This document shows positions 1 through 26,213 of a stretch of DNA of 64,000 bases, piece by piece. Under the pieces are notes generated by a model. The model did not search any database and was not told the DNA's origin. It saw nothing but the letters and a program-made list of their open reading frames with translations. The position numbers were made by a program, and so were the translations under genes. Numbering within the stretch: position 1 is the first letter of the stretch; each line of letters starts with the position of its first letter. This DNA comes from Leucoraja erinacea (taxonomy: Eukaryota). The stretch lies in NCBI RefSeq assembly GCF_028641065.1, contig NC_073380.1:81282001-81346000 (forward strand). The letters are read 5' to 3'.

Positions 1-1884
1 GCCTCAACCGTTTGTAATTCAGTCAGCTGCCAGAAAGACTAGCCAAGCAGCAGCCACACAATCCAGGCTTGTACGCAGACTCATCTCGGATCTCGATTTA
101 CCGTCTCTCTCTACAGAACTATTAACAGCTCTGCAACAGTGGTGAGTTCCATAACGCGGCTTTGATTCTTGATGGTACACGAACGACACTCGCGTTCTCT
201 GTTCGCCCTCGTGTCTTAAACTACAAAACGGCGGGATAGAGAACAGAGTTTAACTTTTTTAATTCGAAGAAGCACCTCATTGTACATTAACTCTATTTCT
301 GTCCACAGTTACTGTTTATCCTTGCTTTCGGCTGCTACTGAATTGTCTATTTTTAATTTCCTCGCATCGTTATATTTAATGTTTTATGGCGGAGACTCGC
401 GGTCCCTCCCGTTTCAGCTGTTCTCGAGCAGCCTAGTCCCTTAATGAAGGGGGCCCCGACCCGAAACGTCACCTCTCCCTTTTCCTTTCCTATATCCTGC
501 CTGAACCCGCTGAGTACTCCACACTTTGTTCTATCTATCTCGAGCAAATCTGGCTTCGTACAAATTCACAATAAATGTTAGTAGGTGTATGACAGGAATG
601 CATCTGCTTGGTTTAAACCTAAGATAGACGCATGACATTCTGGAGTAACCTCATCGGGACATTGGCTTTTGCATCTCTGGGCTAGAAGAGATGGGTGACG
701 TTTCAGGTCACGAGAACCGATTTATCGTCCTGCGTCTCAGTACGGGCCCGAGTTCTGTTCTACTCTTGCAAAAAGCGAGCATTACCAACCCTTGGCTGCA
801 GCCCTCCCGCACTCTCTGTAATTAATATAGCTGTTTAGAAGGAACCTCTCAGTTGCTGGAAAAATCCCCAGGCCACCCCAACCCTGCTCGGGAAACTCGC
901 AGTGAGCAGCATCGATGGAGCGAGGAAACTGTCGAAGATCTTTGTCGGGTCGATACCCACCTTGCTTCAGGATGCCCTTCACGCCCGAACCTACCTGTTG
1001 ACATAAGCCCATTACTAATGCCGAATATTTCTACATGTAGGGCACTGTAGGGTATAGCGATTAGCACCTCTAGGGACTACATCATCCAGTCGGATATCTA
1101 GTCCGTTAGCAGACATGGTCACGAATTTTTCTTCAATATTTACTATCATTGAAATCGTTTCCTCCGCCACATCTCTCTTTATTCGTATGCAGTCTTAATA
1201 CAAAAGCCGCTGCAGCCCTTCCCACCGGCCTCTGCGGACCACTGTCCTGAACGGCTTCATTCAAACTATTCTTCCCACTTCACAGAAAATGGCAGGTTTT
1301 CGTTGGACCTTTAGGTGATCCGTTAAATTGAGGACTGCGTCAATATTTGAGCCGTCGATATACCATCGCAGGAGAAAAGAGCCACATGTGTTAATCGAAA
1401 TGGGGTCACACAGCTGGTGGGTACCAGTGAAAGGCTGATTAAAAGGTCGTTAAAAATGCTAACCACTGACAGAGAAAGTAGATCAACCAAAAGGGACAGC
1501 CAAGGCCGCCTATTTGTTCAGGGAGTTGGTGCCATCGAGTCCACTCCAGGCGGACTGAGATGCTGCTGGCTACTGGTCTCACCACCCGCCCCCTTCTTCA
1601 CAGTCCTGCACCAGGAATTGCCGCTTCCATTTGGTGCGATGTCGTTTCCTATTCCAGCTCAGAGATAAATTTCACTGTCGCGGAAGTCTCTCGCCCTCCA
1701 CGCGCGTGGTGCGTGGGGCGCAAACAAGCGCTACAGTCTGAGTGTCAAAGTATCGGTAAATGCAATAACAGAGCCGATCCCACTTCTAGACTGGGAACGC
1801 TCCCCCTGGCAATAAACCGCGAGTTCCCAATGCTCGCACGCGAGCCAGTCGGGAAGCACTTGCCAGATAGGACTCGGCCTAGGA

Positions 1885-1928
1885 AGTTTTTGTATCGGAA
1901 CACCACTCTTCATTGCCATCACACTGTG
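1885..1928 (-). promoter_or_regulatory. Recombination signal sequence of the 1.9-kb V (CACAGTG, 28-nt spacer as read, ACAAAAACT)
   Basis: Heptamer 1928-1922 and nonamer 1893-1885 on the minus strand are near consensus. The spacer is 5 nt longer than 23. Confidence 0.8.
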
Positions 1929-2359
1929 AGACCCATCCGGCACGAAGTAATAGGTGGCGGCACTAGCAGGACAGGTCGGTGTCATATCAATCACAAGAGA
2001 GAAAGTTGAGGTCACTCCCTCGCGGCTGAGAATTTGGCGGGGTATTCCCTGATCCAGCAGCTACAGATTTCCCTTTGCTATAGCGCAGGATCCTTCTGGC
2101 GCGCCTGGGTCGCTGCGTTGTTGATACCAATGGATAGTCATCGAGACCCTTTGCCAAACACTGTATCTTCACGGTTGTGGCCACAGGCTTCGTGATCGAC
2201 ATCTGCGGCTGTTGCAAATCATTGGCAGAATATCCAGCTGTAAATTAAAAAACCATTTGGAGCTACATGGACAAGGAAAGACGGGAAAGTGGTTGTTTCC
2301 ATACAGTACTTCTTACCAAGGAAAATCCACCAGATGGTAACTAGACAACGTAGCGACAT
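1929..2359 (-). pseudogene. TRGV: TCR gamma V segment, frameshifted as read (pseudogene or sequencing-error-damaged functional V)
   Basis: Leader exon 2359-2317 (MSLRCLVTIWWIFL+G, donor GTAAGA), 79-bp intron, acceptor TTTACAG. V exon from 2237 reads (A)GYSANDLQQPQMSITKPVATTVKIQC. With frameshifts it continues IHWYQQR..., RRILRYSKGK, STFSLVID, AATYY(C)AGWV, ending at a CACAGTG heptamer. Confidence 0.85.
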
Positions 2360-4139
2360 GCTGCCGCGGTAAAACTATTCGGATGGACTAGCTCTGATCT
2401 CTGATCACAATGCAGGTTAGAATGGAATGCGAGGTGCCCCGGTTTGTGGTCTGCCCACCTTTATCTGCAACATTGATTTGTGAAATACATTTGCCCAGAG
2501 AGAGGTGGAACAGGAGTGGTTTTTACGACCAGTCCTGCAGACGGAGCACCTTCAAATAAATAAGTTGCAACATTGAAGTCATGCAGTTGATACTGGCTGT
2601 CGTGCAAGTTCTCGCTTGCTTTGGAAGCAACAGCAATAAGATCACATTCACAGTTAGACACAAAGTGCTGGAGTAACTCAGCGGGCCAGGCAACATCTCT
2701 GGAGAAAAGGAATAGGTGACGTTTCGGGCCGAGACCCTACTTCAGATTGAAGAATCCCGCATCGGAATGTCTGTCACCTGCCCTTTTCTTTCAGAAATGC
2801 TGCCTGACCCGCCGAGTTCCTCCAGCACTTTCTATCGATCTTTGTTATAAACAAGCATCTGTTGTATTTTTGTTCCTACGTTCTCGTATTCACAGTTCTT
2901 CTGTCCATGCTTGCCATCCTGGTTGCACTTTGCCTCAAACATTCCCCATGACATTATCTCGTATCTTCTTGTGATCTCCCCGTTATATTTTCAACATTAG
3001 TCCTTGCCACCTCGGTGATTATACCAAGTTCAGAAGTCTCAGTCTGGCAGCATAGCTACTGCTCGATCTGCTAAGTGCGTCCAGCGTTTTTTTTTATTTT
3101 TCCTTGCAATCACAAGTATTTGAAGGGACCTGTAAACATTGGACACTTCGGTTTATCTCTCATTGGTTTCAAATGTCATGCCAGAGAACTGAGGACATTA
3201 AAAAAATGGAGAAAATGAGCAAGAGCACGTCAGTGGTCCCTTCAACGCGTTCCCATTCATTAAGGTCACCAACTAAAGGTATTTCTCCTGGTCGCCGTTT
3301 CCTTGCACGACCCCCGACCGAGGTTCAAGGGTCAAGACGGTATAATTGGCATGATACCGACAACGGAACAATTACATTCTTACTTCCTGCAGTTTAACAG
3401 GCCGATAAATGCAACAGCACGCTGATATATATAACCATCAAAAACAGCATCACTACATAACCAAAATAATGAAAAGATCCAAGTCCGCAACGAAACCAAA
3501 GACATAGTCATAGGAACATATAAAATAGGTGCAAGAGCCTACACCGCCATTCAATATGATCATGGCTGATCATCCAACTCAGTATCCCGTACCCCGCCTT
3601 CTCTCCCATAACCCTCTGATCCCTTTAGCCACAAGGGCCACATCTAATCCCTCTCTTCTCTTAAATATAGCCACATGTTGAACTGAACTCGGCCTCAACT
3701 ACTCTCTGTGGGCAGTCAACAGAATATCATAGTTGCTGAGGTTAGTGTTGTTTAGTGCTCAAGAACTGATGGTTGCAGGGAAGAAGCTGGTCTTGAAGCT
3801 GGAGGTCATGGTCTTTAGGCTCCTGTACCTCCTTCTCGCTGGTAGTAACAAAATAGGGCACTCAAATCCAGAAATTATCCTGCATAGGCACTGAATGAAT
3901 GTAATAAGTAAGTCGCTATAGTCCATGGGACAGAGATACATATTTACAAATTGGAATGGCATGCAACCTGGAGGGGAATCTGCAGGTATCAATGCACCAG
4001 TTAAATTAATCTATGATGGAAGAGAATTGTCAGTATATGGGTTTTGAATAATTGTAGTGCATCTCATAACCTGCAGAGAAAGAGTTGCAGTTATCTGCAA
4101 TATCTTATCTGCATAACATGTCAGGTTTAATCTACAATT

Positions 4140-6597
4140 GGAGAGGGAGAAGGGTGATCGGAACGTGTCAGTGTTACAGTTTGAATAAAGGGGACTATGG
4201 GGCCATGAGGACTGGAGCTGGCCAAAGTTGACTGGAAAGATGCGCGAGTAGGGATGACAGTGGAACAAAGATGGCAGGAATTTCTAGGAATAACAGACAG
4301 AAGGTGCAGAATCAGTTCATTCCTAGGAGGAGAAAGAAAGATTTCAAGGGGGAAAAAAGGGACAACCATGGATGACAAGGGACGTCAGGGACAGGATGAA
4401 AATTAAAGTGAAGAAGTAAACGTAGCAAAGATGAGTGAGAAGCAAGAGGATTGGGTAATGTTTAAAGAACAGTAAATAACAAAAAAAAGACAATACGGGA
4501 AGAAAAGATGATGAGGTACGAAGGTAAGCTAGCCAAGAATATAAAGCAGGATAGTAAAAGCCTTCTTTAGGTATGTGGAGAGGAAAGAAAAATTAGTTAA
4601 GACCAAAGTTGGACCCTTGAAGACCGAAAAAGGTGAATTTATTATGGGGAACAAGGCCTGGCAAATGGCATCTGCCATGAGTTGAACAGGTTACTTTGGA
4701 TCTGTCTTCACTAAGGAGGGCCCAAACAATCTTCCTGATATAAAAGTGGCCAAGTGGACCGAGGGTGACGGAGGGGAACTGAAATAAATCCACATTAGGC
4801 AGGAAATTGTGTTGGATAGACTGATGGGACTGAAGGCTGATAAATTCCCCAAGGTCTGCATCCCAGGGTACATAAGGACGTGGCTATAGAAATCGTGGAT
4901 GCGTTGGTGATCATTTTCCAGTTTTCTATAGACTCAGGATCAGTTCCTGTGGATTGGTAGCTAATGTTATCCATTTTTTTAAGAAAGGTGGGAGAGAGAA
5001 AACATTGGAATTATAAACCAGTTAGCCTGACATCGGTGGTGGGGAAGATGCTGGAGTCAATTATAAAAGATGAGATAGCTGAACATTTGGATAGTAGTAA
5101 CAGTAAAGTGGGCCCCTGATGAAGTGGGCCCCCTTTGTCTCAGTAAAGTAAAGGTCCGAGTTCTTGACTAAATCTTCTGGAATATTTTTGAAGATGTAAC
5201 TAGGATAATGAATGAGGGAGAGCCAGTGGATGTAGTATACCTGGACTTTCAGAAAGCATTTGATAAGGTCCCACAAAGGAGATTAGTGGGCAAAAATAGG
5301 GCACATGGTATTGGGGGTAGAGTGCTGACATGAATAGAGAAGTGGTTGGCAGACAGGAAACAAAGAGTAGGGATTAACGGGTCTCTTTCAGAATGGCAGG
5401 CAGTGCCTAGTGGGTCTATGAAAGTAAGCATGCAGGTACAGCAGGCAGTGAAAAAGGCGGAGAGAATGAAGCAGCTGGGCTTGTACTCTGGAGTTTAGAA
5501 GGATGAGAAGGGATCTTATTGAAACATATAAGATTGTTAAGGGTCTGGACACGCTGGAGGCAGGAAGCATGCTCCCGATGTTGGGGGAGTCCAGAACCAG
5601 GGACCACAGTTCAGTAGCAGACTGGGTCTAAAAATATGGGTTGCCAGGAGACAAAGGGGGCCCACTTCATCAGGGGCCCACTTGCCATTGGGCCAAGCTG
5701 ACACCCTGGCCAGTCTGAACCGAAGACGAGAAAACACTTTTTTTTCACAATGAGTTGTGAGTGTGTGGAATTCTCTGCCTCAGAGGGCGGTGGAGGCAGA
5801 TTCTCTGGATGCTTTCAAGAGAGAGCTGGATAGGGCTCTTAAAGCGGAGTCAGGGGATATGGGGGATATGGGGGAAACAGGCAGGAACGGGTACTGATTG
5901 GCCATGATGACATTGAATGGCGGTGCTGGCTCGAAGGGCCGAATGGCCTACTCCTGCACCTATTGTCTATTGTCTATTTATAACAAGAGGACTCGAATAT
6001 AGGAGCAAAAGAGGTCCTTCTGCAGTTGCACAGAGCCCTAGTGAGACCACACCTGGAGTATTGTGTGCAGTTTTGGTCCCCTAATTTGAGGAAGGACATT
6101 CTTGCTAATGAGGGAGTGCAGCGTAGGTTTACAAAGTTAATTCCCGGGATGGCAGGACTGTCATATGCTGAGAGAATGGAGCAGCTGGGCTTGTACACTG
6201 GAGTTTAGAAGGATGAGAGGGGTTCTCATTGAAACATATAAGATTGTTAAGGGTTTGGACACGCTAGAGGCAGGAAACATGTTCCCAATGTTGGGGGAGT
6301 CCAGAACCAGGGGCCACAGTTTAAGAATAAGGGGTAAGCCATTTAGAACGGAGACAAGGAAACACTTTTTCACACAGAGAGTGGTGAGTCTGTGGAATTC
6401 TCTGCCTCAGAAGGCAGTGGAGGCAGGTTCTCTGGATGCTTTCAAGAGAGAGCTAGATAGGGTTCTTAAAAAATAGCAGAGTCAGGGGATATGGGGAGAA
6501 GGCAGTTACTGATTGGGATGATCAGCCATGATAACATGACAAGGCCCCGGATGGCTCGAGTGGCGAATGGCCTCCTCCTGCATCTATAGTCTATTGT
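4140..6597 (+). mobile_element. Two tandem CR1-type LINE fragments (~4140-5976 and ~5977-6597)
   Basis: VYLDFQKAFDKVP, LVRPHLEYCVQFWSP and FFTQRVVSLWNSLP motifs, with typical 3' ends (gaagggccgaatggcctactcctgcacctattgtctatt). Confidence 0.9.
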
Positions 6598-6599
6598 CA

Positions 6600-7106
6600 A
6601 TTTTCAATTGTTATTAAGCGCAGTTGGTGGTGAGCATAAATGTTCAGGGCGGTTGATGAGGTGGATGCTCAACAGGTCTGGCAGGACTTGGACATCATCA
6701 CGTCCTACAAGGTGACACTAAGTAGGTCGGGTGACATAGAAAGATCACTTCTGGATGAGCTCAATGTCTTCTATGTTTGCATCAAAGGGAAGAACAAAGG
6801 GCCTTCACGATTCCCCACATCCCCCATGACACTGTGATCTCAGTGTCCGAGACCAGCATCTGAAGATCCTTCGAGACTCAAGGAACTGCAGGTGCTGGTG
6901 TACAAAAAAAAGTGACTGAGTACTGGAGTAACCCAGCAGGTCTGGCAGCATCTCAGGAGGACATGGATATGTGACCTTTTGAAGATAGACACAAAATGCT
7001 GGAATAACTCAGCGGGACAGGCCGCTTCTCTGGAGAGGAGGAATGGTGATGTTTCGGGTCGAGACTCTTCTTCAGACTCATGTCTGAGATGATGTATTCT
7101 CAGCAC

Positions 7107-7147
<41 letters not shown>

Positions 7148-7990
7148 AGTTCAAGAAGGAGAATGAGAACCTTGCAACCTGGTGCCATAACAAAAAACCT
7201 TCCTTCAATGTCAGCAAGATTATGTTTTACTTCAGAAAGCAATGAGGTACACACACACACCAGTATACATTAAAGGCACTGAAGTAGAGTTCATCAAAAG
7301 TTTAAAGTTCCAAGGAATAAAGATCACTATAAATCCTTCCTTAACCAACCACATCGAAGCTCGGGCAGGGAAAGCACACCAGCATATCTGCTTACTGAGA
7401 TAGACTCAACATGCTGGTGTAACTAAATGGATCAGGCAGCATCTCCGGAGAAAAGGAATAGATGACGTTTCGGGTCAAGACCATTCTTCAGACTGCCTGA
7501 CCTACTGAGTTACTCCATCATTTTGAGCCTATCTTCGATGTAAACTAGCATCTGTACTTCTTTATTACACATTTTGTCTACTTCCTTAGAAGGCTGAGGA
7601 AGTTCAGCATGTCCCAACATCACTTACCAGCTTCTACAGATGCCCCATAGAAACCATTTTATTGGGATGCATCATAGCCTAGTTTGGGAACAGCACCATT
7701 CTTGACCACAAGAAAATTCAGAGAGTTGTGGACATAGCCTAGATCATCACGCAAACCAACATTGACTCCATCTACACTTCACATTGCCTTGACAAGGCCA
7801 CCAGCACAATCAAAAACTAGTCTCGCCTGGTCACTACCCCCTTTCCCATCAGGCAAGAGGCACAGAAGTTTGAAAACACTTTACTCCAGATTCAGGGATA
7901 GTTTCTTCCCAGCTGCTATCAAGCAACTGAATCGTCTTCTCGCCAACTAAAGTGCCATCCTGACCTCCCATCTACCTCATTGGAGACCTT
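6600..7990 (+). mobile_element. Degenerate Rex1-type LINE fragments interrupted by short repeats
   Basis: QQVWQDLDIITSYK, LLDELNVFY and PSGKRHRSLKTLYSRFRDSFFPAAIKQLN match Rex1 ORF motifs. Confidence 0.65.
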
Positions 7991-8010
7991 TGAACTATAT
8001 TTTATCATAT

Positions 8011-8410
8011 AAACATAGAAAATAGGTGTAGGAGTAGGCCATTCGGCCCTTCGAGCCTGCACCGCCATTCAATATGATCATGGCTGATCATCCAACTCAG
8101 TATCCTGTACCTGCCTTCTCTCCATACCCCCTGATCTCTATAGACACATGGGCCACATCTAACTCCCTCTTAAATATAACCAATGAACTGGCCTCAACTA
8201 CCTTCTGTGGCAGAGAATTCCAGAGATTCACCACTCTCTGTGTGAAAAATGTTTTCCTCATCTTTGGTCCTAAAAGATTTCCCCCTTATCCTTAAACTGT
8301 GACCCCTTGTTCTGGACTTCCCCAACATCGGGAATAATCTTCCTGCATCTAGCGTGTCCAACCCCTTAAGAATTTTGTAAGTTTCTATAAGATCCCCCCT
8401 CAATCTTCTA
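8011..8410 (-). mobile_element. CR1 LINE 3' fragment
   Basis: RLRGDLIETYKILKG...SRTRGHSLRI plus the CR1 3' tail. Confidence 0.88.
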
Positions 8411-9699
8411 TCAGACCTTGTCGTGCACAAAATGTTGTACCCTTCAAGCTTTACCTTTACACTGTGGACAGCTTGCTTGTAATCATGTATAGAGTTTTTT
8501 TTTACTGGATAGCCCGCAACAAAAAGCTTTTCACTGCACTTCTGTACACTTGCAATAATAAACTAAAGTAAACATAAAGCTGCAAGATATCCAATTGGAA
8601 AGAGAGGTACTGCTCTTCCAGTTTGCGTGTGGTCTTACTCTGGCATGGTGGCGGCCCAGGTCAACAAGGCCAGTATATGAATGGGAAGGGGAGTTAATGG
8701 TTAGAGGAGGTGCATTTGTCTCACCTGGAAGGACTGCTTCTGTTTCTTCTTTCATGTGGCGTGCACAATCTAAAGTTGCAGGACAACTTGTTCTATTTGA
8801 TCTTCTGTTTGTGCACGTCGAGTTGATTGCATTAATCGAAACAGGGCGGACCACGTGAAGGACCGCTAGAATCCCTGGATGGATGTAAGGGGGGAAGATA
8901 TAGGTACAGGAGGATCTTCAGAAGGATCTGAAGACCCTTCACAATCACAATCACAATAATACTTTATTAGCCAAGTATGTTTTGCAACATACGAGGAATT
9001 TCATTTGCCAAGTCAGTCATACAAATAAAAAGCAACAGAACACACAAAACACATTTTAACATTAACATCCACCACAGAGATCCCACATTCCTCACTGTGA
9101 TGGAAGGCAAAACAAAGTTCAATCGCTTCCCTTAGCTCTCGGTCGGGGGCCTCGAGCCCTCCGTTCACGGGATGATTTCCACGTCAGGGCGATCCAGCTC
9201 CTGCATCAGGGGGATGTCAGCTCCCCCCCGCGCTGGTCGATCGAACCCCGCGTCGGGGCTGGTCGAGCCTCTGCGTACGTCGGAGCTCTCGATTAGCCTC
9301 TCCCGAGATTGCAAGCTCTTGATGGTAAATCTGCAGGCCACTGTTGGAGCGATCCCTGGCAAGGGAGCAGCTCCGATATTAAGTCCATGCCCTGGGATGG
9401 GGCCCAAGGTCAGTCTGAAGAGACCTCCAGCTCCATCGATGACAGGCCGCAGAGCGACCCGAGATGCGACCTGGAAACATCGTGTCTCCTTTCAAGGTAG
9501 GAACTGAAAAAAAAGATCACCCCCCACATAAAACAAACCAGAGAACATTTACGCAAAACTTATAAAATGCACTAAAAATTAAAAAAAAGACGAAAAACAA
9601 ATAGACTGTTGGCGGGGCTGCCAATCGTTTAGCGCCCCTAGTGGTGTGGTGAGGGTGAACCCTCGGCAGGCATCCACTCCTGATGGTGTCGCTGGTCAC

Positions 9700-10070
9700 T
9701 GCGGACTAAATGGCTGGAGCTCTTGCAGACATCTTCAACCTCTTATTACAATTGTCCAAGATCCCGTAATACCAATGCCAAAGAAGAGCAAGTTATATGC
9801 CTCAGTGACTACCGACAAGTGGCATGTCTCTTGTGATGAAGTGCTTTGAGGGTTTGGTTGGGAACAGTATCAATTAATGCCTTGGTAATGACATGGACTC
9901 ACTTCAATTCACTTCAATTCACCACAGAAGATCAATAATGGATGTGACATTGTTGGCTCTCCACTCGGCACTGGACCACTTGGACAACACAAATACATAC
10001 CCTCCATCATCCCTTCCAAACCTATTGTTAAATGCAGAGAAATTGATCTCTGCTTGACACAATACAATTG
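9700..10070 (+). mobile_element. Degenerate Rex1/Babar-type LINE, 5' part, interrupted by the DIRS element
   Basis: Remnants such as DIFNL, PMPKKSK, (S)DYRQVA and IIPSK..NW align to the intact Rex1-type ORF at 31536-32720. Confidence 0.75.
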
Positions 10071-13000
10071 AATAGTAAGATTAAACGAGAACTTACCAGT
10101 TCGAAGTTTGATCATTATTTTATGAGGAGTAACGTTGAGGGATTACGTGAAGAACCCGCCAGAGCGCAAGCGTGTCATTCTTCAAAGCAGCGGTGTGAAA
10201 CCACAGATAACAGTAAATGACTGAACATAGTAAGATTAGAGAAGAGGATACCAGTTGAACTTTATGATCAAGGGTGGGAGCGGAGGGCACGTAATCCCTC
10301 AACGTTACTCCTCATAAAATAATGATCAAACTTCGAACTGGTAAGTTCTCGTTTAATCTTACTATTTTACATTGGAGTCACGTGAGTGACTACGTGAAGA
10401 TTTCAAAGCTCTGTGATTTCATGCCGTGGAAACGAGTCCATGCATCACATCTGCCTTAATTGACTAAGAGAGGAATTGTGTTAACATGTTTAAACATGAA
10501 TCTGATATTGAAAATCCATGATAAATTTATTAACAACAAACTATAGCCCCTATTTTATGGGGTGAAATCATATTACAGAACTTAAAATTGATTCTGCAAA
10601 AGTTCCAGGTTTAACCACTGGTTTATGGTAGAATTGTTGGAACGTTTTTTCCCTTGACCATCCTGCTGTCTCCAGGATTTGGTCCATCGGTACATCCAAG
10701 TCGTATTGTCCAGCCTTAACTTACGTAAAGACTGTACCCTTTGTGCTGTGACCAAAGCCATCAGCATGACTGTTTTATGCGTCAGCTTTTGCAGGGACAG
10801 AGCTGTTGCTGGAGACCAGTTCCTTAGCAACGTTAGGACAATACTCACATCCCATATTTGAGAGTACCTGGTTCTTGGGGGATTGATATTAAAAATTCCC
10901 CTCATAAGTTTGGTTACCAGGGGGCGAGTCCCAACAGAATGACGCTCTGATCCTCGCCATAGATATGTTGAACGGGCACTTCTGGCACAGTTAATGGCAC
11001 TGTAACTGGGCCCCTCATCATAATGGAGGCCTGCCAGGAATTCCAGAACAGACGTTATGTTCATCGAGCTGTAAGTGATGTTGTTTCTGTGACAATATAT
11101 CTCTCATTTCCTGATGTATACCAGATATTGTTTTTTGGTGGACTGCCTGTGAGCCGCTGAGATAATGTTCAATGTTCGGTCCGTCAGTCCCAGTTCCAGC
11201 TGAGGTCTCTTTAGACTCTACAAATTAATAAGTTTGTCGTTTTATGACATGGATGGCTATCCCCAGTTACGGGATGAACCAACAAATCTGATCGTTTCAG
11301 GATGATGATACATGGTTCTAAGACCATGTCGAGTATCACAGGGAACCATGGTTGAGTAGGCCAATCGGGCACTACCAAAATACCAGACTTGTTGTATTTT
11401 GCATAATACCCGACTGATGAGACAAAAGGAGGAAATGCATAGAAAAACAATTTCCCCCAATGCAGCGAAAAAGCATCTATCGCTGATGCCCCAGGGTCTG
11501 GTTCCCAAGAAACATAATTTGGTAACTGGTGATTGAGTCTAGATGCAAATAGATCGATATCTGGTGTTCCATACCGTGCTACAATTTCAGCAAATACTTT
11601 TATATCCAACATCCATTCGATGTTTTCATTGAATTTGCGTGACCTGGTGTCTGCCACTGAATTTAGGTTACCTGGTAGGTAAGTAGCTGATATCCAAATA
11701 TTTCTCTGGATACACCATTGCCAAATTGTATTATCCAGATTGTCACATGATGTCGATTTGATTCCACCCATATGGTTAATATATGCCACCACGGTGGTAT
11801 TGTCAATCTGTAGTCTAACATGCTGGTGATATATTCCAGAACAGTATAACTTTAGGCCATAGAATGCATCCAACATTTCCAGGTAGTTTATGCCAAGTGG
11901 CTGTAGTAATGATGCCTCCTGTGCATTCCATCTACCTCCACACTGGAGATGGAATTGGTTGCACCCCAACCAAACGCACTGGCATCAGTTTGTAGCACCA
12001 CTGAGCGGTTGCTGATAATAATAGGGCTGGAACAATGCCGAATATTATCCCTCCACCATTTTAATTCCATAATTGCTTTGATTGGTAGCTTCATTGGTCT
12101 GTCGAAATGACCCGCATTAATTTTGAATGCTTGTACTTTTGCCCTTCGTAAATTTTGATAATACAAAGGTCCAAATTGTGTGGCTGGAAAAGCAGCCAAT
12201 ATTTTGCCAATTACCATTGCTACCAATCTGATAGATGGTTCACTGATGTCAATGAGGTTGTTGCAGGCCTCAATTAAGACTGTAGCCTTGTCCTTTGGTA
12301 AAGTCACTGACATGTGAACTGAGTCAATAGTGACCCCCAAATAATCCATTATGGTGGAAGGTGTTAGTTTAGATTTAACTGGATGGATGATAAACCCCAG
12401 TTTCTCAAACAATTATTTGGTGGCTGGTACAGCTAGTTTGGCTAGTTCCAAAGTTTTGCCCACAATCAATATGTCATCTAGATAGGCCATGATCATATGT
12501 TTTTGTTTCCGAAGAAACGCTAGGGCTGGTTTCAAAATTTTTGTAAACAGCCTGGGGGCTGATGTTAATCCATTTGGTAGAGCTCTATACTGTCAGGGCT
12601 GCCCCATCCAGTTGGATTTTAAATAACGTCTGTGGTCAGTCCGTATAGGCACTGAATAGTAAGCATCTTTTGTTTGGCAGTAACTAAGGTTTCCATTTTG
12701 AAATGAATATATTGCACATATGTATTCAAGTTGGTCAAATCTATGATGATGCGACAAGCACCATCTTTTTTTTGTGTTTGGTAAAGATATTAGACACAAT
12801 TTCCAGAGAATTATTTGTTGGGATTTTTCAATTACCCCCTTTGCGTGAAGTCTCACCAGTTCAGCATGTGCTTCTAATTTTTCTTTTCGTGAAAGTACGA
12901 ACGTTCGGTTCGGTACATGCTGAACTGGGGGGCTATTTTTGTGCACAAATTCAATGGTATATCCCTGGATACTGTTTAGGATATAAGTGTCTGTTGTCAA

Positions 13001-14525
13001 TGCACTCCATGCCTCCCAAAAGAAGTGTAATCTCCCACCGATATGTGTATGATCCACACTTCCTATTATTTGTAAGGGACCAAACCCACCTACCTCCATG
13101 GTTACCAGTGGAAGGTTTACTTCTTCCTGTGTGGTCTTCGAGGAGGTTGAGGTGCCGGTGTCTGGGTTTAGGTTTGGGTTTGGGGTTTGCGCATTTTCCA
13201 CGAAGGCCGGTCTGGGCCATGGCCTAAAAAAGACCGCTGTCCTGTATGCCGTGCCTTTGAGCTTTTACCAACTTCTCCTGTTCTGCTGGTGGGTGCGTAA
13301 GGGTGCTGTTTGTGGCTGTGGGAAGTCTTTGCTGTTGTCGCCTTTATGAGCCCCAGGGTTTTTGCCTCCTCATCGAGCTCCTTAACCTGCTTGGACAGGT
13401 TTCCACCAAATAATAATATTGGTGGCTTTGTGTCTCCAGGTTTGCACAGGCCTGAAAATTTTGGATTTAAGGCAGGTCGGATGGCACTCTTTCTGACATT
13501 TCATACGGCGTATTGCAGAATAGTGCCAGTGCATCCTGTTGTTCTTGCGACATTTCCTTCCCATCCACTGTGCGAGCGAATGCTGTGATCCCTGCTGTTA
13601 GTAGTTTTAGTATTCTCTGGAGCTTGACATCCATGCTTCTAACTGCTGCTCCGACGTATTTCCAGATACAATTATTCACGACTGGAACATTCAGGGGTAC
13701 GCAATTTCCTAGTGCCAGTGGTGTCCATCACAGCCTGTTCCTGTAGTTGCTTGAATGACAGGACATCAATGCTGGCAGCTAGTTTCTGTTCTACATTCCG
13801 TCCAGTCTGATCCGGCTGTATGTAGTTGGACATCATGTCCAGTAGATTTTCGCCTTCCTGCACCCCCTACACACTTGTAGTTTGTTCAGCAAACCCCTCT
13901 TCGGGGTCAGCCCAGAATTGACCCCCAGTACTCCCCTCTGACGAGGGAGATGCACTGTGCAGCCCTAGGTGCTGCTGTGGGTGTTATATATGACCCACGG
14001 TGACTAGACTCCATCTCCCGGAGTCTGTCACGTTGGAGCATTTGCTCCATGAGCCGCTCCATCCGGCTCCAGCGCGCACGGTCGCTGGCTGCTCGCAGCT
14101 CCTCAAAGTCGGACTCCTCAGAGTCAACGGCTCCATTTGTTTTTCTTTTTGCTTTCCCACCCGGCCGCGGTGTTGATCTGGCAGGTGCGGGGGCGAAGTC
14201 GGGCACAGCTGATCCCATTACGTGTGATTCCTGTGCCGCCGGCCGCTGCTGGCTGCCCGTAACTCCGCGGTCCTCCCCCATCAGCTTTGTCGCAACTCTG
14301 GTTGATTTTTTGGATTTGTCCATCGTTTCCCCACCTGTGAAACAGTATGGGAAAAATAAAGACCGCAGAGTAACCACTTACCTGTCGGTCCCGGCTTTTA
14401 AACTTGCCGCTGCGGGGGAACGTCCTTCCACCCCGCCTGTCGTTTCACAATGCGTGTAGCGATATGACACGAATTCTCCATGGCGGGTTCTTCACGTAGT
14501 CACTCACGTGACTCCAAAGTAAAAT
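10071..14525 (-). mobile_element. DIRS1-like tyrosine-recombinase retrotransposon, decayed
   Basis: Minus-strand ORF remnants in DIRS order: gag-like (~14377-13200); RT (DAYYSVPI..., YLDDILI near 12465-12485, LGFIIHPVKS); RNase H (LQTDAS..GWG, INYLEM, IDNTTVVAYINHMGG, N..AD..SR); methyltransferase-like (IDLFAS...YAFPPF); tyrosine recombinase (11064-10600). Inverted termini and an internal complementary region are present. Confidence 0.93.
10288..10400. repeat. DIRS internal complementary region (ICR)
   Basis: 10288-10366 is the exact reverse complement of 10071-10149 (79 bp). 10364-10400 is the reverse complement of 14489-14525 with one mismatch. Confidence 0.93.
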
Positions 14526-15460
14526 CCTTAACTTCCTCATTGGCAGAACTCAATTGGTATGAATTGGCAAAGGCAACTCCTCCACACTGACCTTGAGAAG
14601 CACATGAAGACCGCATGCTCAGTCATCCCCTACCATTTCTATACTCGTGACTGTGCAGCCAGACACAGCTCCAACACAAACTTTAAATTCACACATGACA
14701 CCACCAATGTTGGATGAATAATGGTAAGGATGTCAGAGTATAGGAGTGAAAATAATAATCTGGTTGAGTGGTACCAGAACAACAAACTCGCTCTCAATGT
14801 TAGCAAGACCAATGAGCTAATTTTTCATCAGGAAGGGAAAACTGAGGTGTCCTTACACCTGTCTTCATTAGTGGGGTGGCAGTATAGAGAGTCAACAGCT
14901 TCAGGTTCCTTCATGCACAGATCTCCGATGATCTATCCTGGGCCCAGTATAATGATGCAATTACAAAATAAAACTCGCCAACATCTCTACTGCCTCAGAA
15001 TTTTGAGGAGATTTGGCATAGTACTGAATACTCTTGTGATTTACTATAGGTGGAGAGCATACAGCCTGGCAACTCTACAGATAATGACCTCTCCACCACT
15101 AACGGGATCTACAGGAGTAGATCATTAAAGATCCACACCACCTGAAACATGCTCTTGCTGTTACCATTGGAAAGAAGAGACAAGAGCCTGAAAAAGATTA
15201 GCTTCAAGAGTAGCGTTTTTCCATTATTTATCAGGCTTTTGAGTCTTATTGCACAACCTGACCTCAGCACCAAACTACTACGAACTTTCCATAAGGTTCC
15301 ACTACTTACTTTGTTTTATACTATTGTGGTCTAGCTAGCTGCTTTAACTGAGAATTTATAGTATAATTGTTCGTAGTGTTGCGTTTAATATGTCTGTAAA
15401 GCAGCAGCTTCGTTGGCCTGCTCCCTGTGCACATGACAATTAAACTCTAGACTCTTGAAT
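14526..15460 (+). mobile_element. Degenerate Rex1/Babar-type LINE, 3' part, continuing across the DIRS insertion
   Basis: ILNFLIGRTQ..., NNKLALNVSKTNEL, QHLYCLRILRRFG and SFKSSVFP..IRLL, followed by a Rex-type 3' end (catgacaattaaa...cttga). Confidence 0.75.
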
Positions 15461-15759
15461 TAAGTGATTCTTTTTCCTAGATGGTGTTGAGCTTTTTGAG
15501 AGATGTTTGGAGCTAAACTCATCCAGCCAGAAGCATTACTTTATCACACATCTGCCTTGTGCCTTGCAGGTAATGGAAAGCCCCTAAATGTCATCCCATG
15601 ATATCTAGTCTTGCACGTGTTGCCCCAGTAGTGAAGTGGCTGGTCCAGTTCACTTTTTCTGGCCATGGAATAGCGAGGATGTTTCATTAGACTCACTTGC
15701 TGTAGATTGTCACTTCTTGGTGCACTTGTTACACAGACGGAGTTCATTGATTAAACAAT

Positions 15760-16572
15760 AAGTGAGTTCGGTATTTCGAAAAACGCAAGGAAACATGGGA
15801 TTTGTCAAAGGTCGTAAGCTATAACAGTAAATAGATCTCAGCGCTATAGGGGGCTGCATGTAAGGTCATCGGGTCAAAGGGCGTGACGCACGGAGCAGCT
15901 CAATCTGTCTGGAGGACATGGCAGCCTCCCACATACACTGTTAACACACGAAACGCGTACTTTCTTACTTGTTAAAACCGCCAAAATGGTCAATTTTTGC
16001 GCTGTAAATAATTGTGGAGGGTGACTGAGCGCTCTGAACCAAATGCCCTACTATCTTTGCACTGAACCCGAACACCAAGGTGTAAGCGGCAGGGGGATAG
16101 ATGGCCGGGGTCCACGAGTGTGGATCCAGTCTGCGTGGAGTCCGGAAGCTGGGATAGAAGACGGGCCCCTTCACTGGAAGCCAGGGTAAGTGCTTACCAA
16201 AGACACGCTTACCTGCAGTTCACCGCATGTACTCCAGTTGGCGTTGCGTGGCAACAGTACGAGTCCGACTGAGGGGAGGAGGTGGAGGTGGAGGGCTGCC
16301 GGGGCCAACCCGGCGGGACAGGCAGAGCCGAGCTGGAGCCAGCGGCTGCAAGTCCAGGGTTGCCTCGCCAGCCCAGGGCCAACCAGGACACATCCAGGCA
16401 GGGACGGGACACCGGGGAGGGGACGGCCCAACAGCACCCGCAGCGACGGAGGGCCAACCCCGACTACTGACGAAACGCGCCTGCACACAATGCAGCATCA
16501 CCGTTGCCAAGGCTGTTTTATAGCTAGTGACCAATAACCTGGGCATGCGTTGTCGGAATACCGAACACGCTT
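15760..16572. mobile_element. Non-autonomous TIR DNA element, copy A
   Basis: Imperfect ~20-28 bp TIRs (left AAGTGAGTTCGGTATTTCGA; right, reverse-complemented, AAGCGTGTTCGGTATTCCGA), flanked by AT on each side. Confidence 0.7.
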
Positions 16573-16879
16573 ATTGCAGATTTCTGGGTGGAAGAAAATA
16601 GCCGTGCAGTAATGTCTTGGAACCGGGATGATGTTTTCTGACGGTCAGCGTCAGAGTCGGGTGATTGGGAACTCTGTAGGTAAAGCGAGTCCATTTGTCA
16701 CCACACCGGCCGGGCCAGTCCCTCGCCCACCGCTCCGCGGGAGGACAGCTTCCAGGAATTGGGTAACACAAGGGTCAGTCTCATCGTTGAAGCGGAAACG
16801 CTTCCTTGTAACTGGAGATCCGGGCCGTTTTAGCGGCTGCTAGTCGCTCGGACCCCAGCACCTGTCCCTGTGAGAAGCG

Positions 16880-17039
16880 GTAGGCGAGGGGTGCATCGGC
16901 GTGTTGTTCAGTAGGCGAGGGGTGCAGCGGCGGGTTGTTGCAGTAGGCGAGGGGTGCAGCGGCGGGTTGTTCAGTAGGCGAGGGGTGCAGCGGCGGGTTG
17001 TTGCAGTAGGCGAGGGGTGCAGCGGCGGGTTGTTGCAGT
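16880..17039. repeat. G-rich minisatellite, 5 copies of 31-32 bp
   Basis: Unit GTAGGCGAGGGGTGCAGCGGCGGGTTGTT(G)CA repeated five times. Confidence 0.95.
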
Positions 17040-17068
17040 CTCCGGATCAGGTGCACACAGGTGTTCTG

Positions 17069-17107
17069 GCTTTTTGTGCGGAGATTGTGTTTCTGTTACA
17101 CGCTGTG
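17069..17107 (-). promoter_or_regulatory. 23-RSS (CACAGCG, 23 nt, ACAAAAAGC)
   Basis: Heptamer 17107-17101, spacer 17100-17078 (exactly 23 nt), nonamer 17077-17069, directly after the V exon. Confidence 0.93.
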
Positions 17108-17535
17108 TAACCCAGCAGGCGCAGTAATAGGTGGCAGATTTGTCAGCCGTTAATTCAATTGCAAGGTAGAATGCGGTGTCAGTGGTTTTCCCACCGTTGA
17201 AGGAGGTCCCAAATCCCGGATCCCGCACCACGCGATTTCCAAAGTAGAGTATCCGAGCGATCGGCTGCCCGGCTTTCTGTTGGTACCAGTGAATGGGGTT
17301 GGTGTCACTAATTTGGACGTCTTTCACTTGACACCAGACTCGCACTGTTTTACCGGCAGACGAGGTTAGCGATCCTTTGGGCTGGGTCAGGGTCTGGGCC
17401 AAACACCCACCTGCAAAAAGAACAGATTTTGATTAAATCGGCGGTGCCACGGGAGAGACCGACAATACATAGCTGAAGAACCATCTGACACGCACAGCCC
17501 AAACTTAGCACGAAAAAACAGGAAAACAGCCACAT
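17108..17535 (-). CDS. TRGV: TCR gamma V segment (leader exon 17535-17490, V exon 17410-17108)
   Basis: Leader MWLFSCFFVLSLGCA+T, donor GTCAGA, 79-bp phase-1 intron, acceptor TTTTGCAG. Open V domain AQTLTQPKGSLTSSAGKTVRVWC...IHWYQQKAGQPIARILY...SATYYCACWV with both Cys and the conserved Trp. IHWY/ILY/YYCAxW plus a 23-RSS is typical of TRGV. Confidence 0.93.
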
Positions 17536-18977
17536 GTTCGCTCAGCTGGATCGCTGTTTAGAAAGTGAGAGGAATTAAGTGACTTCCCTCAACACACTCG
17601 GCCAGCTATTGGAGTCGGCGCTGAACCCGCCCCGAAACACTCTCCTCGGCTGAGCCCGCAACAATGATTCGCGTTATTCCGGTGGCGTCATGTTTCATCT
17701 CGGAGAGTGGGTGTGAGAGGTGCAAGCACACAGCGGTTCATTTCTTCCTTCCTTTCCAACCGACAAATTAGGTTGAAATTACCTCAGCCATTTCTTCCGG
17801 ACCATTGGTACAAAAGGCCATTCTGTCCCTGTGTCTGCCCCGACCTCGCCGTTTCATTCGCATTATCAGACTGATCTTTATCTAACATGGAAATCAGAAA
17901 TACTGGAGAGAGAAACAGAGTTAACGCTGCAGGTCGAAATTTCAGACATGTATTCTCATGTGCTTATCCTCTGCTGTATCTCTCCTCTGCACCAACTGCA
18001 CGACCGCCTTTCCGAGCAAGTTCTTCTACCTCCCGCTAGCATATTTCCGTGTTTAAAGCCTCTCCCGGTCGTCGGAGTTTCGATCCTCCCGACGAGAGGG
18101 CCTTAACATCGGGCCGTCGGCAGCCGTGAATGCGACGGTTCAAAGGCCTCGACCACGGGTGAATAAAGGAGGAAGATGGCTGAACTTTATTGCCTTCCTT
18201 CACAATGAGGAATGATGATTCCACTGTGGTGGATGTTTATGTTAAATTTCATATTATGTGTGTATTTTGTTCTTTTCGCTTAATATGGCTGTATGGTAAC
18301 TCAAATTTCACTGTGCCGTAATCGGTTGTGACAATAAATGCGAATTTGAACTTGACTTTATTGTCTGCGTGCCGACTGGATTAGATACGACGCATTAGAT
18401 TTTGTGTCTGTGGAGCACTGCGCCCTGCAGTGTGGGACGCGGGCTCGCCATACTACTGACTGTTAAAGTGTGTGGGAATGTGTGGGGTGGTGCTCCCCCA
18501 CATCTCCCCGCTGGTATGTTGAGAATCCGTAACCCCTGTTCTGCGTTCACGGCTGATCTTCTGCATCAGCGCCGTTTCTAGCATTATTCCCCACCTTTGA
18601 TTCCATGAATATCCTGAGTGCGGCAGCCTGCTGGAGAGTGGAGATTCCCCGCCAAATAAACCCTTCCATCACTTTAACAGCCCACGTGGATTCGCTTCAC
18701 AATCCCCTGCAGACGAGCGAAACTGTTTTCAAGAGGAGGGTCGTTAAAACAAATCTTCTCACCGTGTGATGTGAATCTCTGGAATTCTCCACCCATGTGG
18801 ATTACTGGAAGGAGACATGTTTGACAGACCATGGACGAGCTGCGCCAAGGGGTTCGTTTCTGTGTGTAGCTTTGTGAGTCTATGACGTGGAGAATTAAAG
18901 ACCGTGGAGATCCAACAAAGTGGTTGAGGCCTCGGGCAGATTAGCCGTGATCACATTGAATGGTGGGGCAGGCATGA

Positions 18978-20402
18978 AAACATAGAAACATAGAAATTAG
19001 GTGCAGGAGTAGGCCATTCGGCCCTTCGAGCCTGCACCGCCATTCAATATGATCATGGCTGATCATCCAACTCAGTATCCCGTACCTGCCTTCTCTCCAT
19101 ACCCACTGATCCCCTTAGCTACAAGGGCCACATCTAACTCCCTTTTAAATATAGCCAATGAACTGGCCTCAACTACCCTCTGTGGCAGAGAGTTCCAGAG
19201 ATTCACCACTCTCTGTGTGAAAAAAGTTCTTCTCATCTCGGTTTTAAAGGATTTCCCCCTTATCCTTAAGCTGTGACCGCTTGTCCTGGACTTCCCTAAC
19301 ATCGGGAACAATCTTCCTGCATCTAGCCTGTCCAACCCCTTAAGAATTTTGTAAGTTTCTATAAGATCCCCTCTCAATCTCCTAAATTCTAGAGAATATA
19401 AACCAAGTCTATCCAGTCTTTCTTCATAAGACAGTCCTGACATCCCAGGAATCAGTCTGGTGAACCCTCTATGGCAATAATGTCCTTCCTCAGATTTGGA
19501 GACCAAAACTGTACGCAATACTCCAGGTGTGGTCTCACCAAGACCCTGTACAACTGCAGTAGAACCTCCCTGCTCCTATACTCAAATCCTTTTGCAATGA
19601 AAGCTAACATACCATTCACTTTCTTTACTGCCTGCTGCACCTGCATGCCTACCTTCAATGACTGGTGTACCATGACACCCAGGTCTCGCTGCATCTCCTC
19701 CTTTCCCAATCGGCCACCATTTAGATAATAGTCTGCTTTCCCGTTTTTGCCACCAAAATGGATAACCTCACATTTATCCACATTATACTGCATCTGCCAA
19801 ACATTTGCCCACTCACCCAGCCTATCCATGTCACCTTGCAGTCTCCTAGCATCCTCCTCACAGCTAACACTGCCCCCCAGCTTAGTGTCATCCGCAAACT
19901 TGGAGATATTGCCTTCAATTCCCTCATCCAGATCATTAATATATATTGTAAATAGCTGGGGTCCCAGCACTGAGCCTTGCGGTACCCCACTAGTCACTGC
20001 CCTGCCATTGTGAAAAGGACCCGTTTACTCCTACTCTTTGCTTCCTGTTTGCCAGCCCAGTTCTCTATCCACATCAATACTGAACCCCCAATGCCTTGTG
20101 CTTTAAGTTTGTATACTAATCTCTTATGTGGGACCTTGTCGAAAGCCTTCTGGAAGTCCAGATACACCACATCCACTGGTTCTCCTCTATCGACGCTACT
20201 AGTTACATCCTCGAAAAATTCTATAAGATTCGTCAGACATGATTTACCTTTCGTAAATCCATGCTGACTTTGTCCAATGATTTCACCACTTTCCAAATGT
20301 GCTGCTATCCCATCTTTAATAACTGACTCTAGCAGTTTCCCCACTACCGATGTTAGACTAACTGGTCTGTAATTCCCCGTTTTCTCTCATCCCTCCCTTC
20401 TT
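18978..20402 (-). mobile_element. CR1 LINE, 5'-truncated
   Basis: [46 protein letters not shown] and FTQRVVNLWNSLP, with a (TTTCTATG)n tail. Confidence 0.93.
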
Positions 20403-22429
20403 AGGTTTACTCCTACGGCAACTGCAGTTCCTGCTCCTACCGCTGTTCCCACTCATGCTCCTGCACCAACAGCTGCTCTTGCTCCAGTTCCAGTTCCTAC
20501 AGTTGCTCCTGCTTCTAAAACTGGTCATACTCCTACACTGGGGTGGGAGATTGCAACCTTCGAAACCGTGTTTTGACTAATGCAATAACCCAACGTTTTG
20601 TTAGGCTGTGGTTAGGGGGAGGGTAGTAGACGCAAATACTCAATTTGGACACAAAAGGTTACAGACGCTGGAACCTGGAGCAATATCTAACTGCTTTTCA
20701 AACATTTCTTTCCAAATTGTGTCTACCTCTAAATGGGCAGAGAATTCCGGAGACTCACTTCCCTCTGCAACTATTAATAGCTGGAGGAACTGTGTGGAGC
20801 AGCTAGGGCGGGCGGGGGAGGGAGGGAGGGCAACTTTTCGTGTGGCGAACCTACAGCAGGACTGAAAGAGACGGTAGAAGAGGAAGGGGGAAGGCGAGAT
20901 ACGGACTAGTGGATAATAGGTAGCCTGAAGTTGGGAGAACCTTTGACGGGAGATGAAGCCATATGGGGAGGGGTTAAATTGGGAGACAGACGTGCGTGGA
21001 TACAGGCAATGAGAAAGAGGATGGATGGAGCCAAATGGAGGGAGAGGAGGGTGAAGCTGAAGACAGAGGCTAGATTGTGACACAAAGACTGGACATTGGA
21101 AACAGATAAGTAAAGAAGGTGATAATGGGGAGAGGTGAAAAGCAGAAGGAACTAGATGATGAGGGGACCCTGTGCGTGGGAGTATGTGAATGGAACCAGG
21201 AAAGGGGGAGGAGGAGTCTAGAGCAGTAATGAGGGGGCTGAGGGGTGTATGGGAAAGCCTGAGATCGGCACAAAATGCTAGAGTAACTCAGCCGGCCAGG
21301 CAGCATCTCAGGAGAAAAGGAATAGGTGACCTTTTGGGTCAGTTCAGTTTAATTTTGTTTTTGTCACGTGTACTGAGATGCAGTGAAAAGCTTTTGTTGC
21401 GTGCTATTCTGTCAGTGGAAATATAATGCATGATTACAATGGAGCCATTTACAGTGTGTAGATACATGATAAGGGAATAACGTTTAGTGCAAGGTAAAGC
21501 CAGAACAATCCGATCAAGGATAGTTTGAGGGTCACCAGTGAAATAGACAGTAGTTCAGCACAGCTTCAGCCCAAAATCATCACCTATTTCTTTATCCAGA
21601 AATGCTGCCTGACCCGCTGAATTACTGCAGTATTTAATTATTATCTTTGGTGTAAACCAGCATCTGCACTTCATTGTTTTCAAGAAGGAACTGCAGATGC
21701 TGGAAGATCGAAGGTACACAAAAATGCTGGAGAAACTCAGCGGGTGCAGCAACATCTATGGAGCGAAGGAAATAGGCGACGTTTCGGGCCGAAACCCTTC
21801 TTCAGACTGCACTTCATCTGCACTTCATTCCTCTGCACTTGTTTTGAACCTGCATGTTCTGGTATTTTAAGTTGAATTCCTGCGAAAGCCCGATCGGAGT
21901 CTTCTACATTGTGGGCCTACATAAATGTAATTTATTGTTTACATGGTCACTGGATCTGAAGCACTTATTTCTCTTTTCCCAACTCCTGATGAAGGTTTTA
22001 ACTCAAAAGGTTAACTGTTTCTCACTCCAGGGGTGCTGCCTAAACTGCTGAGCATTGCCAACATTTCCTAATTTTATTTCAGATTTTCCGAGTGTACAGA
22101 TTTTTAACTTTTTCACGAATTCGATTTTGAAAAATCGCTTATTTTCAAAAGTTGACTGCATTTCATTAACCTTCTCAGATAACGTTGAACTAAAATAGCC
22201 CAGGCCTAGGCCAAGATCCTTGGGTCAGGTATCCATCCGATTCCCTTTTTAAAGATTAAAAAAAACAGTGAATGCTAGAAATCTGAAGTCTAGAAATTGA
22301 TTGAGAAAGCATTGACTAACATTTCCACCACCCACGTAGGCAGTGAATCTTAGAATATAACGAGGCTCTGTGTAAATATATATGTTTGTCCCTGACATTC
22401 CTATTCTATCTTTTGCCTAAATAGTCAGA

Positions 22430-22915
22430 GATTGAAACAGCCTGGAAACAGGCCCTTCAGCCCAACTTTCCCCTGCCGACCAAGATGCCCCATCTATGCC
22501 AGTCCCACCTGCCCACATTTGGCTACTATCCCTCTAAAGTTTTCCTGTCTGTGTACCTTTCCTATCCAACCTGACTTTTTACATTTCGTTGTAGTACTTG
22601 CCTTAACTATCGCCTCTGACAGCTCTTTCTGGATACCCACCATCATCTGTGTGGGAAAAGTTGCCCCCAGATTCTTATTAAATCTTCCCCTCCCCTTAAT
22701 CCTATGTCCCCCGGTTCTTGATTTCCCCTACTATGGGTAAAATACTCTGTGCTTTCACCCCATCCAATCCCCTCAAGATCTTATACATGTTTAAAAGATC
22801 ACCCCTCAGCCTCCTGTGCTCCAAGGATTAAAGTCCTGGTCTGCCCATCCTTTCCATATAGCTCATGCCCTCAGCTCATGCCCTTAGGTGGAACATCCTT
22901 GCAAATCTTTTCGTA
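22430..22915 (-). mobile_element. Older CR1 3' fragment
   Basis: Diverged match to the CR1 3' ends elsewhere in the window. Confidence 0.65.
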
Positions 22916-23755
22916 AATATTAAATTTGTGCCCTGATTCTTGAGCCCTCCTTGATTAAATGAGTCATGACTGATTGAATTGAATGACACAGCATGGAAAC
23001 ATTGGCTCACTGAATCCACACCAACCATCGATCACCGGGTTCAGACTAGTTCTCATTTTTGCACATGAAAAAATAATCAAAGAAAAACGCAAATGTTGGA
23101 ATTTGAAACCAAAACTGAAAATGCTAGAAACAGCCAATGGTTCAGACCGCATCTGTGGAAAGGGAACAAAAAGTCATGTTTCAAATCAGACACTTGTTCA
23201 GAACTAAGAAGTTGAGAGAACAAGTTAAACTGCAGTGAGACTGGGAAAGGGAGGGAAAGGACAAAGAGAATATCTCTGACAGAATTATAGAATAGTTATA
23301 GCACAGCATGAGGCTATTTGTCCCATCGTGCCTGTGCCAATTATCCATCAGCTGGTTCCACCTCCTGGCCTCTCTGTATTTTTGCAAATTTTAACAGCAC
23401 CATGTATTGATCCAATTCCCTCTCAAAGGCCACAGTGGAACCCGCCCCCACCCCAAACACACACTGTCAGCGCCTTCTGGATTCCAACCACAGACTGGGT
23501 GATAAATCATTTCCCCACCAGAGGAGTAGCTGTGTGGACAAACTGTTGACAAATACGTGGTTCATAGATTAATGATAGATAGCAATTAGAGAAAGACCAC
23601 AAACAAACGGTGCAGCTGATAAAGCTGCAGCCTCAAGATGCCACAGACCCGGGTTCAACTGTGTGGAGTTTGCACAGTCTCCCAGTGACTGCATGGATTT
23701 CCTCCGGGTGTTCCAGTTTCCTACCACGTCCTAATGATATGCGAGCTTGTTTAAT

Positions 23756-24726: not shown

Positions 24727-25196
24727 ATTGGCCTCTGCAATACCCCTAGTGTGTAGGAAGTGGGTGAGTGTGTGGAATAACACATACTTGTGTGATTGGG
24801 TGATCGGTCAGCGAGGACTTGGCGAGCTGTTTCCAAGCTGTATCTATCAATCAATCAAAAAAAGGAACATACATCCTGTGGTAGACAAACATGCTGGAGA
24901 AACTCAGCGGGTGAGGCAGCATCCATGGAGCGAAGGAAATAGGCAACGTTTTGGGTCGAAACCCTTCTTCAGACTGATGTGAGGATGGGGGGGGGGGGGG
25001 GGGGGCGGGAAGAAGAAAGGAAGAGGAGGAGCCAGTGGGCTGAGGGAGAGTTGAGAAAGGGAGAAAGTAGGGACCGGGGTTTGTTCCTGTCTGTATGGAG
25101 TTTGCACATGCGCACTGTGACCGCATAGGTTTTCTCCAGTTGCTCCGTTTTCCTCTCATATTCCAAAGGCGTGCAGATTTATAGGGTATTGGCTTC

Positions 25197-26174: not shown

Positions 26175-26213
26175 AGTATTTGATCTGGGCTCCCGCGGCG
26201 TTGTATCACTGTG
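26175..26213 (-). promoter_or_regulatory. 23-RSS with divergent nonamer (CACAGTG, 23 nt, TCAAATACT)
   Basis: Perfect heptamer 26213-26207. The 9-mer at 23-nt spacing (26183-26175) matches ACAAAAACC at 6 of 9 positions. Confidence 0.85.

Follow-up and report, generated by a model that had tools for sequence, protein, structure and literature searches.

A damaged extra TRGV segment in the Leucoraja erinacea assembly is an assembly artefact, very probably a noisy false copy from a V4-J1-rearranged lymphocyte

Does the broken T-cell receptor gamma V (TRGV) segment at positions 1885-2359 of the window, the 64,000-nucleotide stretch of Leucoraja erinacea DNA analysed here (C4:81,282,001-81,346,000; the segment is on the minus strand), represent an unannotated gene, a decayed pseudogene or a product of the assembly itself? 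The earlier note on this DNA had taken it for a hidden additional V of a third subgroup, damaged by sequencing noise rather than by evolution. Our analysis, which also covered the adjoining 150 kb on the left of the window and 50 kb on its right, shows that the damaged extra V is an assembly artefact and not a new gene. Very probably it is an insertion-filled false second copy of an intact TRGV, derived from a single uncorrected read of a lymphocyte in which V4 had been rearranged to J1. V5 denotes the fifth V segment counted from the J side, of which the intact copy lies left of an assembly gap and the noisy copy in the window (Table 1).

Table 1. Features of the TRG locus and of its second copy (plain ranges are window positions; those headed C4 are positions on C4).
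Feature	Position	Strand	Remarks
Repeat of C4:81,240,840-81,273,026 (V4-V7), offset 41-42 kb	1052..32022 (about 81,283,071-81,314,022)		Probable false duplication of the second haplotype
Noisy copy, J1-C intron	1..994	-	Extends beyond the left edge of the window, across the C exons, up to the gap at C4:81,273,371-470
Noisy J1 copy, about 10 nt trimmed at 5' end	995..1039	-	Splice donor at 994; intact J1 at C4:81,194,4xx
V-J junction; about 14 nt that align poorly to both sides	1040..1054	-	Probably N-additions plus read errors
Noisy V4 copy without downstream flank, joined to J1	1055..1515	-	Intact at C4:81,240,841-81,241,285
Recombination signal, V5 noisy copy	1885..1928	-	Heptamer CACAGTG 1928-1922, 28-nt spacer, nonamer ACAAAAACT 1893-1885
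V exon, V5 noisy copy	1929..2237	-	309 nt vs 291 nt intact; 14 insertion events (19 bases), 1 deletion, 4 substitutions
GT-AG intron, V5 noisy copy	2238..2316	-	79 nt vs 75 nt in intact copy; 4 inserted bases
Leader exon, V5 noisy copy	2317..2359	-	43 nt, 14 codons; identical to intact copy
V6 second copy	17069..17535	-	8 substitutions, no indel vs left copy over 501 nt
V7 second copy	26175..26658	-	Protein identical to left copy over 110 aa
V segments (7)	C4 81,208k, 81,221k, 81,236k, 81,241.0k, 81,241.8k, 81,257k, 81,267k	-	Open frames, 23-nt-spacer signals
V4 intact copy	C4:81,240,841-81,241,285	-	
J segments (3)	C4 81,194.4k, 81,194.6k, 81,195.8k	-	12-nt spacers
C1 exon	C4 81,191.3-191.6k	-	
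Transmembrane exon with one Lys, TCR-type C	C4:81,187,7xx	-	
Three MENTAL-domain exons	C4:81,155,875-81,162,203	+	STARD3NL-type gene, downstream of C, opposite orientation

The layout of a TRGV (leader, GT-AG intron, V exon, heptamer, nonamer) is present at window 1885-2359 as had been described before, and the motifs LQQPQMSITKPVATTVKIQC, IHWYQQ, RILRY, AATYY and AGWV are found in it with the frame shifting between them. The copy is frameshifted and the Cys-Trp-Cys of the V-set domain does not lie in one open frame; neither of the two pieces into which the ORF track divides it matched Pfam (0/2). A motif scan of the window gave V-like frames at the V5 copy and at a V at 17 kb, and the strict scan for recombination signals matched these two only. 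The window was previously thought to hold three V segments; it has four, the fourth being the V4 copy joined to J.

A genome-wide DNA search with window 1880-2400 returned two matches, the window itself and C4:81,241,613-81,242,092, about 42 kb from the window copy, where an intact V5 is 92% identical to it over 509 nt, which is far beyond chance. Intact V5 consists of a 43-nt leader, a 75-nt intron and a 291-nt V exon; its spliced frame is open, the leader and GT-AG intron are in frame with the V exon, the first Cys, the conserved Trp and the second Cys fall within one open frame, and the V-set domain is recognized by Pfam (PF07686, E 2.5e-13). Its 3' signal reads CACAGTG-23-ACAAAAACC, as judged by the commonly known consensus of such signals. 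The open frame and 23-nt-spacer signal that had been supposed to underlie the damage are seen in this intact copy, and what had been read as a hidden additional gene is a falsely duplicated second copy of it. V5 is only 56-59% identical in nucleotides to the other six V genes and therefore constitutes a subgroup of its own, as had been proposed. From its sequence, the real V5 likely functions as an ordinary TRGV, joining to one of the three J by 12/23 deletional recombination and being spliced to the single C.

Compared with intact V5, the window copy carries 29 inserted bases, 1 deleted base and 6 substitutions in total, the inserted bases being distributed over the V exon (19, in 14 events), the intron (4), the signal spacer (5, making it 28 nt vs 23 nt) and the end of the nonamer (1). 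The damage thus goes beyond the two insertions that the earlier note had named. A 79-bp intron of the same length as that of the 17-kb V had also been noted. This match is coincidental, since the 79 nt include four inserted bases and the true V5 intron is 75 nt, and kinship of the two segments on that ground was rejected; the intron of the 17-kb V may itself be 79, 85 or 94 nt via three in-frame donors.

Independent public sequence was searched for both forms of V5. Window 1880-2700 is partly present in 10 of the 24 runs listed, the best of which holds 0.29 of the sampled words, and 237 of the 791 31-mers of this stretch (0.30) also occur in the intact copy. Four of the 24 runs were aligned to window 960-2640, namely X1, X2 and X3 (DNA or unlabelled) and X12 (RNA); X1 and X2 are one sample, X3 has another organism label and comes from another study, and the Logan contigs drop rare variants and may stem from individuals other than the assembled one. 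The inserted bases of window V5 are missing from the covering contig in all three DNA or unlabelled runs, whose contigs over V5 show 94-110 gaps each against the window, and public contigs have the shorter form of the V exon. Confirmation of the frameshifts and the 28-nt spacer by independent sequence, which had been named, together with a lack of rearranged transcripts, as the sign of a true pseudogene, was not obtained, the public contigs being without the extra bases. Over window 1159-2640 (1482 letters) the X1 contig has 1382 letters, exactly the number in the intact copy, and the X2 contig 1381; the X3 contig has 974 over its span vs 975 in the intact copy.

Substitutions point the same way where alignment is secure: among the 40 listed of 62, the intact copy's letter is found in 12 of the 13 that lie at least 5 columns from a gap and in 5 of the 27 near gaps, where gap placement differs between aligners. 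Seventeen of these 40 agree with our own alignment column for column, and 22 of the 23 others are at most 4 columns from a gap. Three Logan proteins carry V5 and its signal unbroken (P0005 equals the intact copy from residue 2); the contigs behind two of these are probably those of X1 and X2, whose lengths they share, and hence add no support. Some letters of the window are real: positions 1737, 1739 and 1754 have its letter in X2, positions 1754 and 1953 have it in X3, and at the 2151 site P0004 shares its Lys. Since such letters occur as alleles in public sequence, the window copy is best understood as another allele overlaid with insertion noise. In RNA, run X12 (about 1% of the run read) gave 0 reads on the noisy V5 copy, and no RNA holders of the V5 window sequence were found among the runs listed. 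A protein search for V5 relatives of V-J-C length passed 0 of 32 candidates, which is weak evidence, and a PDB search with V5 gave generic antibody V only among the 60 matches listed.

The damage to V5 is part of a wider pattern. A single run of 100 N (C4:81,273,371-470) lies between two TRG copies, with the window just right of it. The right contig repeats C, J1, V4, V5, V6 and V7 without J2, J3 and V1-V3, the part at 81,273,471-81,282,581 corresponding to the C-J1 region 88 kb away; probes for J2, J3, V1, V2, V3 and the 3' flank of V4 found no second copy (6/6), each being present left of the gap only. In 1-kb bins, the right copy is 81-88% identical to the left copy in the first 11 bins and 94-98% thereafter, reaching up to 99.7% beyond window position 10 kb. 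Where the left contig ends, three bins drop to 87-91%, and there it is the left copy that has the extra bases. The bin with the V5 copy has 90 inserted bases, 6 deleted bases and 21 substitutions. In the noisy parts the transition/transversion ratio (ts/tv) is 0.24 and 0.43, with 52 insertion events per kb that are mostly single bases, and in the region farther out it is 1.3-1.4, with 7.4 and then 1.3 insertion events per kb. Insertion-rich error is typical of one long-read chemistry; a literature search on this point returned no paper. The error spectrum together with the intact public contigs bears out the view that the damage is sequencing noise rather than evolution, and on these grounds a true pseudogene was rejected.

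Noise likewise marks the end of the left contig (C4:81,269,000-81,273,370), which breaks off inside a G-rich tract, the likely cause of the coverage break there. The two copies would be two alleles, each contig tapering to very low depth at one end. A gap between copies, low depth and erroneous k-mers count as signs of false duplication (PMC9516828).

The origin of the noise is suggested by a jump of 46.4 kb, from J1 to V4, that the noisy stretch makes at window 1040-1054. By split alignment, the J1 match breaks off at 81,194,456-457, about 10 nt downstream of where the J1 coding sequence begins; the V4 match breaks off at its coding end, 81,240,841, or runs another 10 nt into the signal. Each breakpoint is thus no more than about 10 nt away from the coding end of its segment, a V with a 23-signal (V4) and a J with a 12-signal (J1). 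As a rough null, a random deletion in the locus would have both ends within 10-25 nt of V and J cutting sites with a probability of 3e-6 to 2e-5. The junction insert of about 14 nt is long. Keeping the V4 heptamer and 3 nt more in the alignment raises its score by 3 points over that of the clean coding-end reading; 880 of 3000 random 14-mers gain as much, and a heptamer kept at the joint was rejected as no better than chance. V4 is unjoined in the public contigs, which drop rare variants and may be other individuals: P0006 (2 Logan contigs) equals the left copy and runs from V4 straight into the germline signal, and the X1 and X2 contigs, judged by their length, go on for about 280 nt after V4 coding sequence ends and reach the edge of a repeat. 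The V-J joint likely comes from one rearranged lymphocyte.

In the course of events that we favour, RAG would have cut at the 23-spacer signal of V4 and the 12-spacer signal of J1 in one cell, deleting 46.4 kb, and one read of the rearranged molecule would have become the start of the second-haplotype contig. Because germline reads could not extend across the joint, depth there would have remained near one and read errors would have been kept, leaving V5, 0.9 kb away, uncorrected. Errors would have faded over the next several kb as more reads joined, and scaffolding would have set both haplotypes in tandem. The error pattern suggests that the noisy stretch of about 11 kb originates from one read.

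Three other explanations were weighed against this one. A real tandem duplication of TRG, whose proximal part including V5 had decayed to pseudogenes, would fit two copies lying in tandem and an outer 25 kb that differs by about 15 substitutions per kb at a ts/tv of 1.3-1.4, and cassette duplications with pseudogenes are recorded for mammalian TRG (PMC7349638). Decay, however, would not yield single-base insertions that are one-sided together with a ts/tv of 0.24-0.43, and it would not make identity climb from 82% to 99% within a single duplicate; the copies are moreover separated by an assembly gap, the inserted bases are in no contig aligned from the three runs (3/3), and the genome has a single intact C1 exon at E<=1e-10, all of which makes a real duplication very unlikely.

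The joint itself might have been inherited, as a germline-joined V4-J1 allele on the second haplotype of which only the base errors are artefact. Its presence in a reference assembly and its position at both coding ends speak for this, as does a report that RAG-like activity joins shark Ig genes in the germline (PMC2193156), and if true it would extend germ-cell RAG joining from shark and skate Ig to a translocon-type TCR locus. A heterozygous inherited joint, however, should be crossed by about half of the reads and be no less clean than the allele-like region, and the noise is instead centred on the joint; the X1, X2 and P0006 contigs continue past the end of V4, and the public runs covered here gave no joint at allele frequency in bulk genomic DNA. 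We regard an inherited joint as extremely improbable. Hardly any probability, finally, is left for a false duplication with noise in which a chimeric read, or a misjoin where the heptamers of V4 and J1 are briefly similar, rather than RAG produced the 46-kb jump. The heptamer-like letters in the junction and a V-side alignment that can be extended 10 nt into the signal are what such a chimera would leave, yet the extension does no better than random sequence (the 880 of 3000 above), a heptamer-to-heptamer join would leave J1 with its first 10 nt, of which there is no clear trace, and a random chimera is very unlikely to land on both coding ends.

The closest systems already described resemble the present case in part. 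False heterotype duplications in long-read assemblies (Ko et al. 2022; PMC9516828) likewise show copies on one scaffold with a gap between them, allele-level divergence, error-rich ends and false gene gain; here, unlike in those cases, one contig end also carries a V-J joint, and that study used read depth and linked reads. V(D)J-rearranged sequence is reported in assemblies made from lymphoid DNA, for human IGH in lymphoblastoid lines (PMC7539625), and there too a somatic rearrangement entered the assembly with the intervening segments removed, although the source was clonal cell lines and here it is apparently one TRG molecule in a fish, at raw-read quality. The germline-joined Ig light chain genes of sharks and skates (PMC2193156, PMC2192082) resemble the present case in having a fused V-J in genomic sequence, whereas they are inherited, accurate and in cluster-type loci, and here the joint is noisy and V4 is unjoined in public contigs. 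No fish TRG case came up in literature searches on rearranged TCR reads in assemblies. Searches by title or abstract start, with most subscription journals outside their scope, found neither a germline-joined TCR nor a description of the skate TRG locus.

The germline locus, left of the gap (C4:81,187,700-81,267,750), forms a complete translocon on the minus strand, with 7 V, 3 J and 1 C. The Lys in its transmembrane exon was recognized by a widely known motif pattern. The intact C1 exon is the only one genome-wide at E<=1e-10, and a PDB search with it gave generic Ig C1 only among the 60 matches listed, with no discrimination of C type. No D-like signal pairs were found in C4:81.13-81.40 Mb at strict thresholds. 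The C1 exon (L012:9267-9599) contains an 8-residue direct repeat, VAKVETDS occurring twice, and the noisy second copy apparently also has this longer form. J3 (C4:81,195,740-81,195,860) has the unusual motif FGFGIKLAV and a weak signal, CACCATG-12-TCACACACC, and judging by these it may rearrange poorly. The V7 nonamer, TCAAATACT (window 26175-26658), is three bases off consensus and the same in both copies.

The STARD3NL-type gene downstream of C agrees in position with STARD3NL as the 3' border of TRG loci (PMC7349638). A second MENTAL gene is on C27, and none of nine BAR-domain matches was on C4, where AMPH might be expected upstream of V, in a search that scores the best candidates only. 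In the sandbar shark, TRG is a translocon of 5 TRGV, 3 TRGJ and 1 TRGC (Chen et al. 2009, as given in PMC7349638). In layout the skate locus is similar in being a single V(n)-J(3)-C translocon with 23-spacer V, 12-spacer J and no D found, and in having mostly single-member V subgroups; it differs in having 7 V, of which V2/V4 (75% identical) and V3/V6 (74%) are near the subgroup border.

In the assembly one finds 11 TRGV-like segments and two copies each of J1 and C, compared with 7 V, 3 J and 1 C in the germline, and counting both copies would invent a TRGV expansion and pseudogenes in annotation. Among 53 genome matches, other clusters of V segments are at C25:22.3-23.0 Mb, C8:16.5-17.2 Mb and C29:17.4 Mb and on C977, C1316, C1433 and C1519; they are probably further TCR and Ig loci, and similar rearranged or duplicated contigs could occur at them. 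What is frozen in this reference genome is likely the rearrangement of a single lymphocyte, and antigen-receptor loci are exposed to this hazard when the tissue used for assembly includes lymphocytes. As a by-product, the analysis provides a usable map of the intact TRG locus in a skate.
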